Origin: Methylorubrum extorquens
Lineage (GTDB): Bacteria; Pseudomonadota; Alphaproteobacteria; Rhizobiales; Beijerinckiaceae
NCBI GenBank assembly: GCA_900234795.1
Contig: LT962688.1
Coordinates: 4,020,001-4,052,000, forward strand
Length of the DNA stretch: 32,000 nucleotides
Direction: 5' to 3'
Made by a program: the position numbers and the translations under genes. The number at the start of each line of letters is the position of its first letter. Positions within the stretch are counted from its first letter, which is position 1. Of the stretch, positions 19,158-27,055 are shown one piece after another. The notes below the pieces were generated by a model that was not told where the DNA came from, searched no databases, and worked only from the letters and a program-made list of their open reading frames with translations.

Positions 19158-21245
19158 TTATTCGATTGGCATCGTCCCATGCGCATTGCTGAGCAGACCA
19201 CGTAGGGTTTCGACCAACTCAGTCGCGCGATACGGTTTCTGCAGCAACGAAAAGCCGTTCGTGTCCTGGTCTTCTTGAAGGTAGCCGGACGACAGCAAAA
19301 TCGGCATGTGTGGCCATCGCTGGCGGATGATGTGCCCAAGCTCGATGCCGTTCATCGCGCCCGGCATGTTCACGTCGCTGAAAACGAGGGAAATGTTCGA
19401 CTCTATTTGCAGGAGGCGGAGGGCCTCGTCGACGTCCTGCGCACTGAAAACCTTGAACGCAAGCGCTTCAAAAGTCGAGACGACTGTAAAGCGAACATCA
19501 GCGTCGTCCTCGACGACGAGCACGGCTCTCCCTGCACCATTCATCGCGTTCTGCGGTCCGGGGGCGTTCCCTGGATCGATTTCCTCCGCCGAAAAACCCT
19601 GCTTGGCGAGCACGGGCAGCGTAATAACGAACCGGGTGCCTTGGTCCGGATTGCTGTCAACGGCGATGGTTCCGCCGCTCTGCTGTACGAAACCGTAGAC
19701 CATGCTCAGACCGAGCCCGGTGCCTTTACCGGCCTCCTTGGTCGTGAAGAAGGGTTCGAATACGCGAGCGAGGACGGCTGGAGACATCCCTGTGCCCGAG
19801 TCTGTGACCGCGATCTCGACTGAGTGCACCTGCTCGGAGTCCTCCTGCGCGTCGGCCTCATGACGCTTGATGCGAATGCCCAAGGTCCCTCCGTCTGGCA
19901 TCGCGTCCCGCGCATTCACAGCGAGGTTGATGAGGGCGGCCTCGAACTGAGCGTGATCAACGCAGACTTCCGGCAGTCCATCCTGCAGGTCGGCGGAGAT
20001 CGCAATCCGCTCCCCAAGGGTGCGTTCTAGAAGCTTTATCAGGCCAGGTATGAAGCTCGTGAAGTCCAACGCTCTGGGCTGGAGAGGAGAGCGCCGGGAG
20101 AAGGCCAGCAGCCGGCTGGTCAGTTCAGCGCAGCGATGGGCTCCCTCGATGGCGCTCTCGATGCGGCGGAGCGCTTTCTCATTGCCCGACAACGAGCTCT
20201 TCACCAAATCAAGGTTGCCGATCACGATGCTCAGCATATTGTTGAAGTCGTGCGCAATACCGCCTGTCAGACGGCCAACCGCCTCAAGCTTTGAGGCATG
20301 CTGCAAGCTGAGTTCAAGCTCCTTGCGCTCTGTCACGTCGAACCACATCCCAAACAGTTCGACTGGCGTACCATTCTCATCACCGTTGATCACGATCTGA
20401 TCGAGAATGTGCCGCTCCCTGCCGTCTGCGTTGCGCCAACGATATTCGAGAGTTACCGCGCCAGATTCCGAGACCGTGCTCAGATCTGCAGAGATCCTGT
20501 CCCTGTCATCCGGTTCAAGCTGCTCCCCCCAGAGGTTTGAGGCAGCAAAGGCCTCGCGCGAGAAGCCGGTGATGCGCTCGATGCTGTCATTCGTGAAGTG
20601 AAGCCGTCGATCGTCTCCACTGAGTGGCGAGGTGTAGAGCGCAATGGGGAGGCCGCGCAGGACAGCGGCCTGATGTTCCTCACGCCTGCGCAGAGCCTGC
20701 TCGGCGGCAAGCTTCTCGCCCCGTACGCGCAGGTTTTCGAGGAGCAGCTGCTTCTCGGCCGCCGCCTTGCGCTGGATCTCCGCTGTCTTCAGGTACAGGT
20801 CGACGAAGACATCGACCTTCGATTTGAGGACGAGCGGCTGGATCGGTTTGAACACGTAGTCCACCGCTCCGGCGGAGTATCCGCGGAAGATGTGGATGTC
20901 CTCCTTGTTGTGGGCCGTGAGGAACAGGATCGGGACACGGGACGTGCGCGAGCGGCTGCGGATCAGGGAGGCGACCTCGTAGCCGTCCATGCGCGGCATC
21001 TGCACGTCGAGCAGGATCAGGGCGAAATCCTCCCGGAGCGCCTGCCGCAGGGCTTCCTCGGGCGAGTTCGCCAGCACGAGGTCGATCGCCGGATCGGCGA
21101 GGACCTCGGAGGCGGCGAGGAGATTGCGCTGATCGTCATCGACGATCAGGATCTTCGCCCGAACCGGATCGGGCTCAGTGCGAGCGCTCCGCGGCTCGGC
21201 GGAGCTGCCGGTCCCGGTCGGTAGGAAACTCAGCCCGTCCTTCAT
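19158..21245 (-). CDS. Hybrid sensor kinase with REC, coiled coil, PAS, HisKA, HATPase_c and REC domains
   Basis: 695 aa from MKDGLSF. The ATG at 21245 overlaps the upstream stop as ATGA. REC1 is [12 protein letters not shown]...[15 protein letters not shown]. The PAS region is [17 protein letters not shown]...[11 protein letters not shown]. The H-box is [11 protein letters not shown]. The G-boxes are DSGTGM and [14 protein letters not shown]2 is [10 protein letters not shown]...[14 protein letters not shown]. The tracked longer N-terminus (to 21401) is Arg/Pro-rich and lies inside the upstream gene. Confidence 0.9.
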
Positions 21246-24200: not shown

Positions 24201-27055
24201 CGCGCGAGATCCCCCTTCGTCACGGCGGTCGCCACCTCGGCGATGGCACGCACCTGGGTCGTGAGGTTCGCCGCGAGCTGGTTCACGTTGTCCGTCAGAT
24301 CACGCCAGAGACCCGCCGCGCCCGGCACCCGCGCCTGGCCGCCCAGCTTGCCTTCGACGCCCACCTCGCGCGCCACGTTGGTCACCTGGTCGGCAAAGGT
24401 GGCGAGCGTCTCGATCATCTCGTTGACGGTGTCGGCCAGCGCCGCGATCTCGCCCTTGGCGTCGACCGAGAGTTTCCGCTTGAGGTCGCCCTGCGCCACC
24501 GCCGTGACGACGTCCGCGATGCCGCGCACCTGACCGGTGAGGTTGGCCGCCATCATGTTCACGTTGTCGGTCAGGTCCTTCCAGGTCCCGCCGACGCCGC
24601 GCACCTGCGCCTGGCCGCCGAGTTTGCCCTCGGAGCCGACCTCGCGGGCGACGCGGGTCACCTCGGAGGCGAAGGAGTTCAGCTGATCCACCATCGTGTT
24701 GATGGTCGATTTGAGCTCCAGGATCTCGCCCTTCACGTCGACCGTGATCTTCTTGGACAGATCGCCGTTGGCCACCGCCGTCGTCACGTCGGCGATGTTG
24801 CGCACCTGGCCCGTCAGGTTGGCTGCCATCATGTTCACGTTGTCGGTCAGGTCCTTCCAAGTCCCGCCGACGCCGCGCACCTGCGCCTGGCCGCCGAGCT
24901 TGCCCTCGATGCCGACTTCGCGGGCGACGCGGACCACCTCGGAGGCGAAGGAGTTCAGCTGATCCACCATCGTGTTGATGGTCGATTTGAGCTCCAGGAT
25001 CTCGCCCTCGACGGCCACCGTGATCTTCTTGGACAGGTCGCCGTTGGCCACCGCGGTGGTGACTTCAGCGATGTTGCGCACCTGCCCCGTGAGGTTGGCC
25101 GCCATCATGTTCACGTTGTCGGTCAGGCCCTTCCAGACGCCGCCGACGCCTTTGACCTGCGCTTGGCCGCCGAGCTTACCCTCCGTGCCGACCTCGCGGG
25201 CGACGCGGGTCACCTCCGAGGCAAAGGAGTTCAGCTGATCCACCATCGTGTTGATGGTCGATTTGAGCTCCAGGATCTCGCCCTTCACGTCGACGGTGAT
25301 CTTCTTGGACAGATCGCCGTTGGCCACCGCCGTCGTCACGTCGGCGATGTTGCGCACCTGCCCCGTCAGGTTGGCCGCCATCAGGTTCACGTTGTCGGTG
25401 AGGTCGGCCCAGGTGCCGGCCACGCCCTCGACGCGGGCCTGACCGCCAAGTTTGCCTTCCGAACCCACTTCCTTCGCGACGCGGGTCACCTCGGAGGCGA
25501 AGGAGTTCAGCTGATCCACCATCGTGTTGATGGTGTTCTTGAGCTCCAGGATCTCGCCGCGAACGTCGACGGTGATCTTCTTGGACAGATCACCGTTGGC
25601 GACCGCAGTGGTCACGTCGGCGATGTTGCGCACCTGCCCTGTGAGGTTGGCCGCCATCAGGTTCACGTTGTCGGTGAGGTCGGCCCAGGTTCCGGCGACA
25701 CCGCGCACCTGCGCCTGCCCGCCGAGCTTGCCTTCCGAGCCGACCTCGCGGGCGACGCGGGTCACCTCGGAGGCGAAGGAGTTCAGCTGATCCACCATCG
25801 TGTTGATGGTGTTCTTGAGTTCCAGGATCTCGCCGCGCACATCGACGGTGATCTTCTTGGAGAGATCGCCGTTGGCCACTGCGGTGGTGACTTCGGCGAT
25901 GTTGCGTACCTGCCCCGTCAGGTTGGCCGCCATCATGTTCACGTTGTCGGTCAGGTCCTTCCAGGTCCCGCCCACGCCCTCGACCTGCGCCTGTCCGCCG
26001 AGTTTGCCCTCCGTGCCGACCTCGCGGGCGACGCGGGTCACCTCCGAGGCGAAGGAGTTCAGCTGGTCCACCATCGTGTTGATGGTCAGCTTCAAGGCGA
26101 GAATCTCGCCCTTCACGTCGACGGTGATCTTCTTGGACAGGTCGCCCCGCGCGACCGCGGTCGTGACCTCGGCGATGTTGCGCACTTGGCCCGTCAGGTT
26201 TTCCGCCATCATGTTCACGTTGTCGGTCAGGTCCTTCCAGACGCCGCCGACGCCCTTGACCTGCGCCTGTCCGCCGAGCTTGCCCTCCGACCCGACCTCC
26301 TTGGCGACGCGGGTCACTTCCGAGGCGAAGGAGTTCAGCTGGTCCACCATCGTGTTGATGGTCGATTTCAGGTCGAGGATCTCGCCCTTCACGTCGACGG
26401 TGATCTTCTTGGACAAGTCGCCGTTGGCCACCGCGGTGGTGACTTCGGCGATGTTGCGCACTTGGCCCGTCAAGTTGGCCGCCATCAGGTTCACGTTGTC
26501 GGTCAGGTCCTTCCAGGTCCCGCCGACGCCCTTGACCTGCGCCTGCCCTCCGAGCTTGCCCTCCGAGCCGACCTCGCGAGCGACGCGGGTCACCTCCGAA
26601 GCGAAGGAGTTCAGCTGATCCACCATGGTGTTGACGACCTTGCCGATCCGAAGGAACTCGCCGCGCAGGGGCCGGCCCTCGATCTCGATCTGCATGGTCT
26701 GGCCGAGGTCCCCCTTGGCGACGGCCCCGATGACGCGCGCCACCTCGGTGGTGGGCTGAACAAGGTCGCCGATCATCGTGTTGACCGACTCGACGCAATC
26801 GTTCCACCCGCCGGTCGCGGCCGGAAGCTTTCCGCGCTCGCCGATGCGCCCGTCCTTGCCGACCGCGCGGGCGACCCTGTCGAGTTCACGGGCGAGCCCT
26901 TGGTTGAGCTCGACGATATCGTTGAACGCTTGCGCGATCTCCCCCTCAATGCCCGTCAGATCCAGCGGCAGCCGAGTCGAGAAGTCCCCCTTCCGAAAGG
27001 CACGAAGGCTCTTCAGGAGGAGCTTCGGCTCCAGCTGCAACGTAGTCGGCGTCAT
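21242..27055 (-). CDS. Soluble giant hybrid histidine kinase: poly-HAMP array (~20 HAMP units), GAF, coiled coil, HisKA, HATPase_c and three REC domains
   Basis: 1,937 aa with no N-terminal TM segment. Residues ~20-985 are concatenated HAMP-like units. GAF spans ~990-1145 ([12 protein letters not shown]...IELASFNRF). The H-box is [10 protein letters not shown] (His1257). HATPase motifs are DTGIGI and [13 protein letters not shown]. Receiver Asp contexts are [24 protein letters not shown] and [12 protein letters not shown]. Confidence 0.92.
24428..26635 (-). repeat. Eight tandem 276-bp (92-codon) near-identical coding repeats, each encoding a di-HAMP module
   Basis: The protein motif (T/V)(I/V)[14 protein letters not shown] recurs at aa 141, 233, 325, 417, 509, 601, 693 and 785. 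The antisense track shows the same periodicity: MLMV(D/F)LSSRISP... ORFs start at 24696, 24972, 25248, 25524 and 25800, with further copies inside 25800..26618. Diverged modules flank both sides. Confidence 0.9.

Follow-up and report, generated by a model that had tools for sequence, protein, structure and literature searches.

A soluble AskA-type poly-HAMP hybrid histidine kinase and its partner kinase in Methylorubrum extorquens

Genes and domains at the locus

The 32,000-nucleotide stretch of Methylorubrum extorquens DNA analyzed here (assembly GCA_900234795.1, contig LT962688.1, positions 4,020,001 to 4,052,000; called the window below, with positions counted from its first letter) encodes on its minus strand a hybrid histidine kinase with a long N-terminal array of HAMP domains and, directly after it, a second hybrid kinase. 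Judged from its sequence, the first protein almost certainly belongs to the AskA-type 'kinase-associated poly-HAMP' hybrid histidine kinases. Its domains follow the order starter HAMP and ten di-HAMP modules, GAF, a coiled coil of ~100 residues, HisKA/HATPase and three receivers (REC). The two genes and the parts of the poly-HAMP kinase are listed below, with the evidence for each.

21242–27055, minus strand: complete gene of the soluble poly-HAMP hybrid histidine kinase (AskA-type), 1,937 residues; open reading frame (ORF), translation, start and stop codons read directly.
26894–27037, minus strand: HAMP 1, residues 7–54, the canonical starter HAMP of 'D1' type; gap-free alignment to HAMP1 of AskA (Protein Data Bank (PDB) entry 9TRK), 44% identity.
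26618–26893, minus strand: di-HAMP module 1, residues 55–146, a diverged non-canonical HAMP 2 followed by HAMP 3; 57% and 72% identity to AskA HAMP2 and HAMP3, respectively.
24686–26617, minus strand: di-HAMP modules 2–8, residues 147–790, seven near-identical 92-residue units, each a non-canonical and then a canonical HAMP; pairwise identity and Tandem Repeats Finder.
24134–24685, minus strand: di-HAMP modules 9–10, residues 791–974, progressively diverged, the end of the array; identity to the core modules and Pfam.
23633–24049, minus strand: GAF domain, residues 1003–1141; Pfam GAF_2 (E = 7.5e-18), AlphaFold2 (predicted local distance difference test score about 80) and Foldseek.
23231–23686, minus strand: continuous signalling helix or coiled coil, residues 1124–1275, from the last GAF helix into helix 1 of DHp; AlphaFold2.
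23111–23314, minus strand: HisKA/DHp, residues 1248–1315, with phospho-acceptor His1257; Pfam HisKA (E = 3.7e-20), motif located.
22616–22969, minus strand: HATPase_c catalytic domain (CA), residues 1363–1480; Pfam (E = 4.9e-29).
22127–22471, minus strand: REC1, residues ~1529–1643, with Asp1578; Pfam Response_reg, boundaries estimated.
21740–22093, minus strand: REC2, residues ~1655–1772, with Asp1700; Pfam Response_reg, boundaries estimated.
21332–21670, minus strand: REC3, residues 1796–1908, with Asp1845; the best Pfam Response_reg stretch.
19158–21245, minus strand: partner hybrid kinase, 695 residues, REC-PAS-HisKA-HATPase-REC, directly downstream of the poly-HAMP kinase; Pfam.

The kinase gene starts with ATG at 27055 and ends with TGA at 21244–21242, giving 1,937 codons, and an AAGGG motif is located 9–13 nucleotides 5' of the ATG. 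An in-frame stop bounds the reading frame upstream and the listed ORF is the longest after that stop; an N-terminal extension of the kinase is therefore impossible. An original prediction, made from the letters of the window, had given the same 1,937-residue ORF without a strand, and direct reading of the start and stop codons confirms it and places it on the minus strand. Kyte–Doolittle averages over 19-residue windows reveal no transmembrane segment in the 1,937-residue kinase, as had been predicted; the maximum mean is 1.69 and this window falls within the first β-strand of REC1. Neither an upstream in-frame extension nor a transmembrane region, the two features that had been named as signs of a conventional membrane receptor, is found. 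There is also no input domain ahead of the HAMP array, which begins at residue 7, in agreement with the same prediction. The closest database protein is 99% identical and is annotated 'HAMP domain-containing protein [Methylorubrum aminovorans]', and proteins of Methylobacterium spp. are 90–96% identical to the kinase. On the plus strand, a repetitive ORF of 1,263 residues runs antisense to the kinase at 23285–27076; it is read as a shadow ORF of a GC-rich gene (GC content at third codon positions, GC3, 91%) and not as a gene.

Pfam and AlphaFold2 bear out the predicted series of a GAF domain, a coiled coil of ~100 residues, HisKA/HATPase and three receivers after the array. The GAF fold resembles the GAF domains of PtsP, Lcd1 and phosphodiesterases (PDE) in Foldseek, with a target-normalised template modelling score of about 0.7. 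No ligand can be inferred from these comparisons, as the sequence search of the PDB gives only a marginal match to a PDE GAF domain and the Foldseek matches are generic folds at 16–20% identity. In the AlphaFold2 model of residues 975–1315, a single unbroken helix is predicted for model residues 150–301, which correspond to residues 1124–1275. This helix between GAF and DHp is rich in Gln, Glu, Leu and Lys. The length of the coiled coil varies by about 28 residues (~four heptads) in homologues P0015, P0026, P0040 and P0046, and the stretch at residues ~1160–1190 (about 23486–23578, minus strand) resembles an internal duplication of a 'QQEELxxTNxRLE'-type unit. Response_reg matches three stretches, and by reading of the sequence the acidic pocket, the phospho-acceptor Asp, the Ser/Thr and the Lys are intact in all three receivers.

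The HAMP array and its counterpart in crystallised AskA

The array consists of the starter HAMP and ten 92-residue modules (residues 55–974), 21 HAMPs in all. Self-identity at a lag of 92 residues is 0.73 across the first 1,000 residues of the kinase, and Tandem Repeats Finder reports a 276-bp period at 24237–26634 with 8.7 copies, 85% matches and a score of 3039. The 92-residue repeat is far beyond chance. The original prediction had placed the array at residues ~20–985 and had described eight almost identical modules with diverged modules at both ends. The uninterrupted chain of HAMPs and the diverged ends are found as described, with limits that are really at residues 7 and 974. Near-identity holds for seven modules: modules 2–8 share 87–95% protein identity and 81–89% nucleotide identity in pairwise comparison. 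The presumed eighth, module 9, is moderately diverged, with 75–80% identity to modules 2–8. Module 10 falls to 60–65% and module 1 is strongly diverged. The last canonical unit of the array still gives a Pfam HAMP match of 34 bits.

The first two HAMPs of the canonical kind have features of their own. HAMP 1 reaches a Pfam HAMP score of 16.9 bits, under the cut-off of 25, and a hidden Markov model (HMM) built from the canonical halves of the kinase's own repeats finds 10 units, not 11, leaving HAMP 1 unmatched. A D1 HAMP in first place is a family feature (PMC13446029). HAMP 3 carries Pro100 and the linker insertion 'EGRPLRGEF'; the strings 'VQPTTE' and 'GRPLRGEF' are the same in the window kinase and in Myxococcus xanthus AskA. 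A proline kink in the input helix of the third HAMP, together with an insertion in the inter-helix linker that forms a β-hairpin, is conserved (PMC13446029). All ten modules contain a G-x-W motif (GGW in module 1), which provides the Trp with which the output helix of each non-canonical HAMP starts.

The HAMP nature of both halves of each module is defined by comparison with crystal structures. Pfam HAMP and HAMP_2 each match ten stretches, one per 92-residue module and always in the canonical half, and the non-canonical halves have no Pfam match even at E ≤ 10. A 200-residue query covering two modules finds 9TRK and 9TRJ ('histidine kinase, Gcn4p') in the PDB with E = 9e-87. These entries are the 6-HAMP and the 4-HAMP fragment, respectively, of M. 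xanthus AskA (PMC13446029). Kinase residues 7–285 align without gaps to residues 48–326 of 9TRK with 71% identity (E = 3e-126), and the identity of window modules to AskA HAMP4–6 is 83–85%. In this alignment the non-canonical halves coincide, again gap-free, with the non-canonical HAMP2, HAMP4 and HAMP6 of 9TRK, and for this reason they are counted as HAMPs. The AskA crystals show canonical HAMPs in alternation with non-canonical ones, the output helix of one HAMP running on as the input helix of the next, in a single dimeric four-helix rod (PMC13446029). A domain scan had been suggested as the check on HAMP pairs. Pfam calls a single HAMP per module, which on its face speaks against pairs, but this result is overridden by the homology to 9TRK, and we reject the missing half-module calls as an argument against HAMP pairs. 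By this alignment, the window array reads as 21 HAMPs colinear with the crystallised AskA array. The 71% gap-free identity to the AskA fragment further suggests that it forms a dimeric, continuous four-helix rod.

The family assignment given above is based on the D1 starter, the proline kink and insertion of HAMP3, the Trp of the non-canonical HAMPs, the GAF-DHp-CA-REC tail and the alignment with 9TRK. Kinase-associated poly-HAMP arrays are described as soluble, with no upstream input, and as consisting of D1 and then repeats of type C and type D2, followed by GAF, DHp, the catalytic domain and at least one receiver (Coles et al. 2026, PMC13446029). Arrays of this type also occur in fungi and Amoebozoa (PMC13446029). 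Marcos-Torres et al. 2020 (PMC7643160) describe AskA, AskB and Sorangium Amb07 as group III-like kinases of bacteria, needed in development and in the responses to ambruticin and glycerol. The prediction of a soluble di-HAMP hybrid kinase akin to fungal group III is thus supported, by the 9TRK homology and the family hallmarks, with the fungal link taken from the literature. The bacterial counterpart of Nik1/Os-1, offered there as an inference, is not new: such proteins are already published with crystal structures (PMC7643160, PMC13446029). The GAF domain after the HAMP array, which had been highlighted, is the stated architecture of the family and no peculiarity (PMC13446029). The protein is an uncharacterised further example of an already published and crystallised family and introduces no new principle.

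Homologous arrays, selection and the partner kinase

The best 120 database homologues were examined for length, module count and N-terminal hydrophobicity. They are 1,935–2,925 residues long with 10–18 modules and come from many phyla, and none of the 120 has an N-terminal hydrophobic segment. The shortest of them are the window kinase and its orthologues in Methylobacterium, each of which has 10 modules. An alignment of the GAF-coil-DHp region was also scanned against species-representative genomes, giving at least 597 confirmed stretches, of which the best 80 loci were kept. The 80 loci span Gemmatimonadota, Cyanobacteria, Actinomycetota, Acidobacteriota, Bacteroidota, Bacillota, Planctomycetota, Myxococcota and Proteobacteria. 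In 59 complete genes at these species-level loci, the module count is 3–12 with a median of 10. The array had been called unusually long; its 10 modules equal this median, are the lowest count of the best 120 homologues and are the same as in AskA. Nor does it stand out in homogeneity, as had also been supposed. Internal modules are 82–91% identical between most phyla compared (72–75% to a Streptomyces array), against 91% inside the window array, and a window module is 89% identical to the pan-phylum consensus. At 52 of the 92 positions, 90% or more of the 520 regular modules taken from 74 loci share one residue, and the G-x-W columns, with the Trp and the junction Gly, are conserved at this level too. 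On these sequence comparisons, module homogeneity is a property of the family and not particular to the window kinase.

Selection on the kinase was estimated by comparing the window gene with that of Methylobacterium sp. UNC378MF (L004, 7079–12892; 96% protein identity). Synonymous and non-synonymous differences and the ratio of non-synonymous to synonymous rates (dN/dS) are as follows.

Modules 2–8 (24686–26617, minus strand): 179 synonymous, 2 non-synonymous, dN/dS 0.003.
GAF: 38 synonymous, 1 non-synonymous, dN/dS 0.007.
DHp and CA: 54 synonymous, 20 non-synonymous, dN/dS 0.10.
REC1–3: 92 synonymous, 20 non-synonymous, dN/dS 0.056.
Linker before REC1: 12 synonymous, 14 non-synonymous, dN/dS 0.34.

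The constraint on the array is extreme and stronger than that on the catalytic core of the kinase. PMC7643160 and PMC13446029 make no mention of such selection on the array. Modules in the same position are 96–100% identical across Methylobacterium species, compared with 87–95% among the paralogous modules 2–8 of one array. The synonymous divergence (dS) of the orthologous arrays is about 0.5, which is normal, with almost no amino-acid change. Since position-specific variants of the modules are kept across species, near-identity is held by purifying selection on each module. Paralogous modules have a dS of 0.44, close to that of the orthologues, and the GC3 of 91% makes dating from these values unreliable. 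Recent amplification or ongoing gene conversion was considered as the source of module identity and rejected, because positional orthologues are closer than paralogues, dS is normal and the modules are similar across phyla.

The second gene of the locus is tightly linked to the first. The ATG of the partner kinase (21245–21243) overlaps the TGA of the poly-HAMP kinase (21244–21242) in the four nucleotides ATGA, read directly, and from this arrangement the two genes are considered co-transcribed and translationally coupled. Deltaproteobacterial, acidobacterial and melainabacterial loci have a similar order, in which the poly-HAMP kinase is followed by a REC-kinase-REC gene (L001, 15876–17582; L002, 12881–14656; L003, 14995–17529), and in two of these three loci genes for CheR and a CheB methylesterase lie between them. 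The N-terminal REC of the window partner, which has a C-terminal helix extension, is 49–54% identical to that of the deltaproteobacterial and acidobacterial partners; the kinase cores are 25–27% identical. An HMM of this partner receiver scores 148–260 bits on same-strand downstream genes and 60–96 bits on generic receivers. With it, 50 of 67 loci, in many phyla, are found to have a partner-type REC on the same strand no more than 2.5 kb downstream. The partner is either a hybrid kinase of 380–820 residues or a stand-alone receiver of about 145–245 residues, the latter mostly in Actinomycetota.

Of the 67 loci, 8 have a CheR gene between those of the two kinases (among them L001, 14468–15879; L003, 13606–15068; L007, L010, L022 and L073), and 4 of these also encode a receiver-less CheB-type methylesterase there. 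These neighbours hint at methylation of a kinase rather than of a chemoreceptor. The window itself contains neither CheR nor CheB. PMC7643160 and PMC13446029 make no mention of 'operon', 'CheR', 'methyltransferase', a partner gene overlapping the kinase stop codon or a link to a partner receiver. In M. xanthus, askC is directly downstream of askB, REC3 of AskA contacts the receiver of AskC, and ambruticin binds AskC but not AskA or AskB (PMC7643160). The window partner may be the orthologue of AskC, as suggested by gene position and by the family-wide partner receiver.

Between the kinase start and a divergent methyltransferase-like gene (27711–28520, plus strand) there are 655 bp (27056–27710) with only doubtful minus-strand ORFs and no Rfam match, and Rfam has no matches over the whole window. 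A response regulator of NarL/FixJ type (29860–30564, minus strand) and a kinase with a 'DLHDHAGQQL' H-box of HisKA_3 type (30521–31843, minus strand), both read from translations only, form an unrelated second two-component pair. In M. extorquens AM1, the hybrid kinase META1_1800, mutated in a gadolinium-adapted strain (PMC8969499), was considered as an orthologue and rejected; the primers used to clone it do not occur in the window, and no kinases flank it. The only text match to 'HAMP' in that paper is 'Hampton'. Its supplement lists two adjacent genes, META1p1128 and META1p1129, both as 'multi-sensor hybrid histidine kinase', which are possibly the orthologous operon of AM1; in that case RNA-seq counts for the pair are already available.

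Proposed signalling model and relation to known systems

We propose that the array works as a cooperative conformational switch, its canonical and non-canonical HAMPs adopting opposite states of helix rotation, as in the published zig-zag or 'gearbox' scheme. The state of the array would be passed through the GAF domain and the long helix and would set the balance of kinase and phosphatase activity at His1257. Phosphoryl groups would go to the kinase's own three receivers and to, or in competition with, the N-terminal receiver of the partner, a route that mirrors the contact of AskA REC3 with the AskC receiver. The chemical input would most likely enter through the PAS domain of the partner and/or the GAF domain, by comparison with the binding of ambruticin to AskC in M. 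xanthus, and the array surface would answer a physical or protein-binding cue. Family and mechanism taken together are probably the best explanation of the locus, and the mechanistic chain as a whole is tentative, with nearly as much to be said for it as against. Several points weigh against it. The gearbox rotation is supported by crystal and AlphaFold conformations and not by functional assays of arrays (PMC13446029), and for the Alphaproteobacterial members the mechanism is presumed from sequences and models only. Which way phosphoryl groups flow between the two kinases is likewise presumed. In 17 of the 67 loci no partner REC is detectable within 2.5 kb. In addition, the window partner differs from the partners of other phyla in its DHp type (AHDFNN) and by one additional PAS domain; therefore only its receiver is demonstrably the conserved piece.

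Other readings assign the sensing role differently. The GAF domain could be the sole sensor of a small cytoplasmic ligand, with the 21-HAMP array as a passive dimerisation rod or spacer. Its fold is confirmed and resembles nucleotide- and other ligand-binding GAF domains, it is under nearly the same constraint as the array (dN/dS 0.007) and keeps about 70% identity across phyla, and the legend of a published figure names it 'the sensory GAF domain'. We nevertheless consider this unlikely. A dN/dS of 0.003 and near-invariance at 52 of 92 positions, some of them outside the hydrophobic core, are unexpected of a passive spacer, the conserved peculiarities of HAMP1 and HAMP3 argue for a function at the free end, and mutations or deletions in the HAMP region of fungal kinases alter osmotic and fungicide responses (cited in PMC13446029). 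The fold matches of the GAF domain also give no ligand. The extreme constraint over the whole array surface, the missing input domain upstream of the HAMPs and the glycerol and osmotic-type phenotypes tied to AskA/B/C and to fungal group III kinases would agree with an array that itself senses a physical variable (osmolarity, water activity, crowding or temperature), as proposed for Nik1/Os-1, the GAF domain and the partner serving as relays only. However, the M. xanthus triple askABC mutant is still glycerol-responsive and the chemical ligand binds AskC (PMC7643160). The strong conservation of the GAF domain and of the partner receiver also points to further inputs, and we consider a purely physical sensor quite improbable. 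A wider form of array sensing, which seems doubtful to us, would make the array the receptor for a universal physical cue or for a conserved partner along the rod, cooperative and tuned by its length, in a three-part system with the partner receiver and, in certain lineages, CheR/CheB. The near-invariant module would then be among the most tightly conserved signalling elements of bacteria, with function spread over the entire exposed face of the rod. If true, the link to CheR/CheB would be a case of methylation-based adaptation of a histidine kinase outside chemotaxis.

The array might also be a set of disguised helix-turn-helix motifs (RpiR-like HTH_6, SpoIIID-like) that binds DNA, so that the kinase acts at promoters as suggested for AskA and AskB. 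AskB and AskA bound PmrpC DNA in vitro (PMC7643160), and Pfam gives whole-protein matches to HTH_6 (E = 4.6e-8) and SpoIIID (E = 3.3e-6). The scores are barely over the cut-offs and are summed across the repeats; no stretch passes alone, and the best covers 29 residues of models with 77 and 82 positions. FliE, DUF1759 and DUF948 give similar summed matches, which marks them as coiled-coil repeat noise, and the residues that match the helix-turn-helix models form HAMP helices in 9TRK. DNA binding by the array is thus very improbable. The summed noise matches are located at residues 271–299, 690–718 and 373–412 (within 24134–26893, minus strand), and those of HTH_6 and SpoIIID are the ones that were read as DNA-binding in AskA and AskB.

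The input of poly-HAMP kinases is a long-standing question of practical importance, since phenylpyrrole, dicarboximide and ambruticin fungicides act through the fungal members of this kind. The locus adds that an AskA-equivalent 21-HAMP kinase with a coupled partner kinase exists in the non-developmental Methylorubrum and Methylobacterium. What remains of interest is the extreme degree of constraint on the array, together with the conserved association with a partner receiver and CheR/CheB.

Among known systems, the Aer2-type multi-HAMP chemoreceptors share chained canonical and non-canonical HAMPs, continuous helices and tight glycine junctions with the window kinase. However, the similarity to them is marginal (Aer2, PDB entry 3VOL, E = 0.016), the HAMPs are of types A and B in Aer2 and of types C and D here, and Pfam finds no match in the kinase to the PAS or MCP-signal domains expected of Aer2-type receptors, which have a PAS-heme sensor among the HAMPs and a methyl-accepting domain as output. 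The two kinds of array, Aer2-type and kinase-associated, are of independent evolutionary origin (PMC13446029). The fungal group III kinases (Nik1/Os-1/TcsC/Bos1) are closer. Likened to the window kinase through the literature only, they are cytosolic, with N-terminal alternating HAMPs, no transmembrane segment, and a kinase core followed by a receiver. They are not known to have a GAF domain or long coiled coil between array and kinase and have one receiver, not three, and their output runs through Ypd1–Ssk1 to the HOG MAP kinase pathway. The window kinase differs from them in being bacterial, in the GAF domain and coiled coil of ~100 residues that intervene, and in its three receivers. The literature places the fungal arrays in the kinase-associated type and suggests a shared origin (PMC13446029); they are shorter, the poly-HAMP regions of Amb07, AskA and AskB being extended relative to NIK1 (PMC7643160).

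The M. xanthus kinases are the nearest relatives among the characterised systems. As in AskB–AskC (MXAN_6735/6734), a poly-HAMP hybrid kinase is directly followed by a second hybrid kinase with a receiver. The window partner is joined to its kinase by the ATGA overlap; in M. xanthus, askC follows askB. AskB has 31 HAMPs (PMC13446029) compared with 21 in the window kinase. The same spurious partial HTH_6 and SpoIIID matches over the HAMPs occur in AskA, AskB and Amb07. AskA (MXAN_0712, UniProt Q1DEE3; PDB 9TRJ/9TRK) belongs to a developmental myxobacterium, unlike the Alphaproteobacterial host of the window kinase (Methylorubrum/Methylobacterium); the AskA outputs, MrpC/FruA and fruiting bodies, therefore cannot apply here. 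In architecture the two kinases correspond closely. Over the first six HAMPs, the part covered by sequence comparison, they are 71% identical with no gaps, and by the published description AskA is also soluble, with 21 HAMPs arranged as D1 and ten C–D2 repeats, the proline and insertion of HAMP3, the conserved Trp and junction Gly, and GAF-DHp-CA with at least three receivers after the array.

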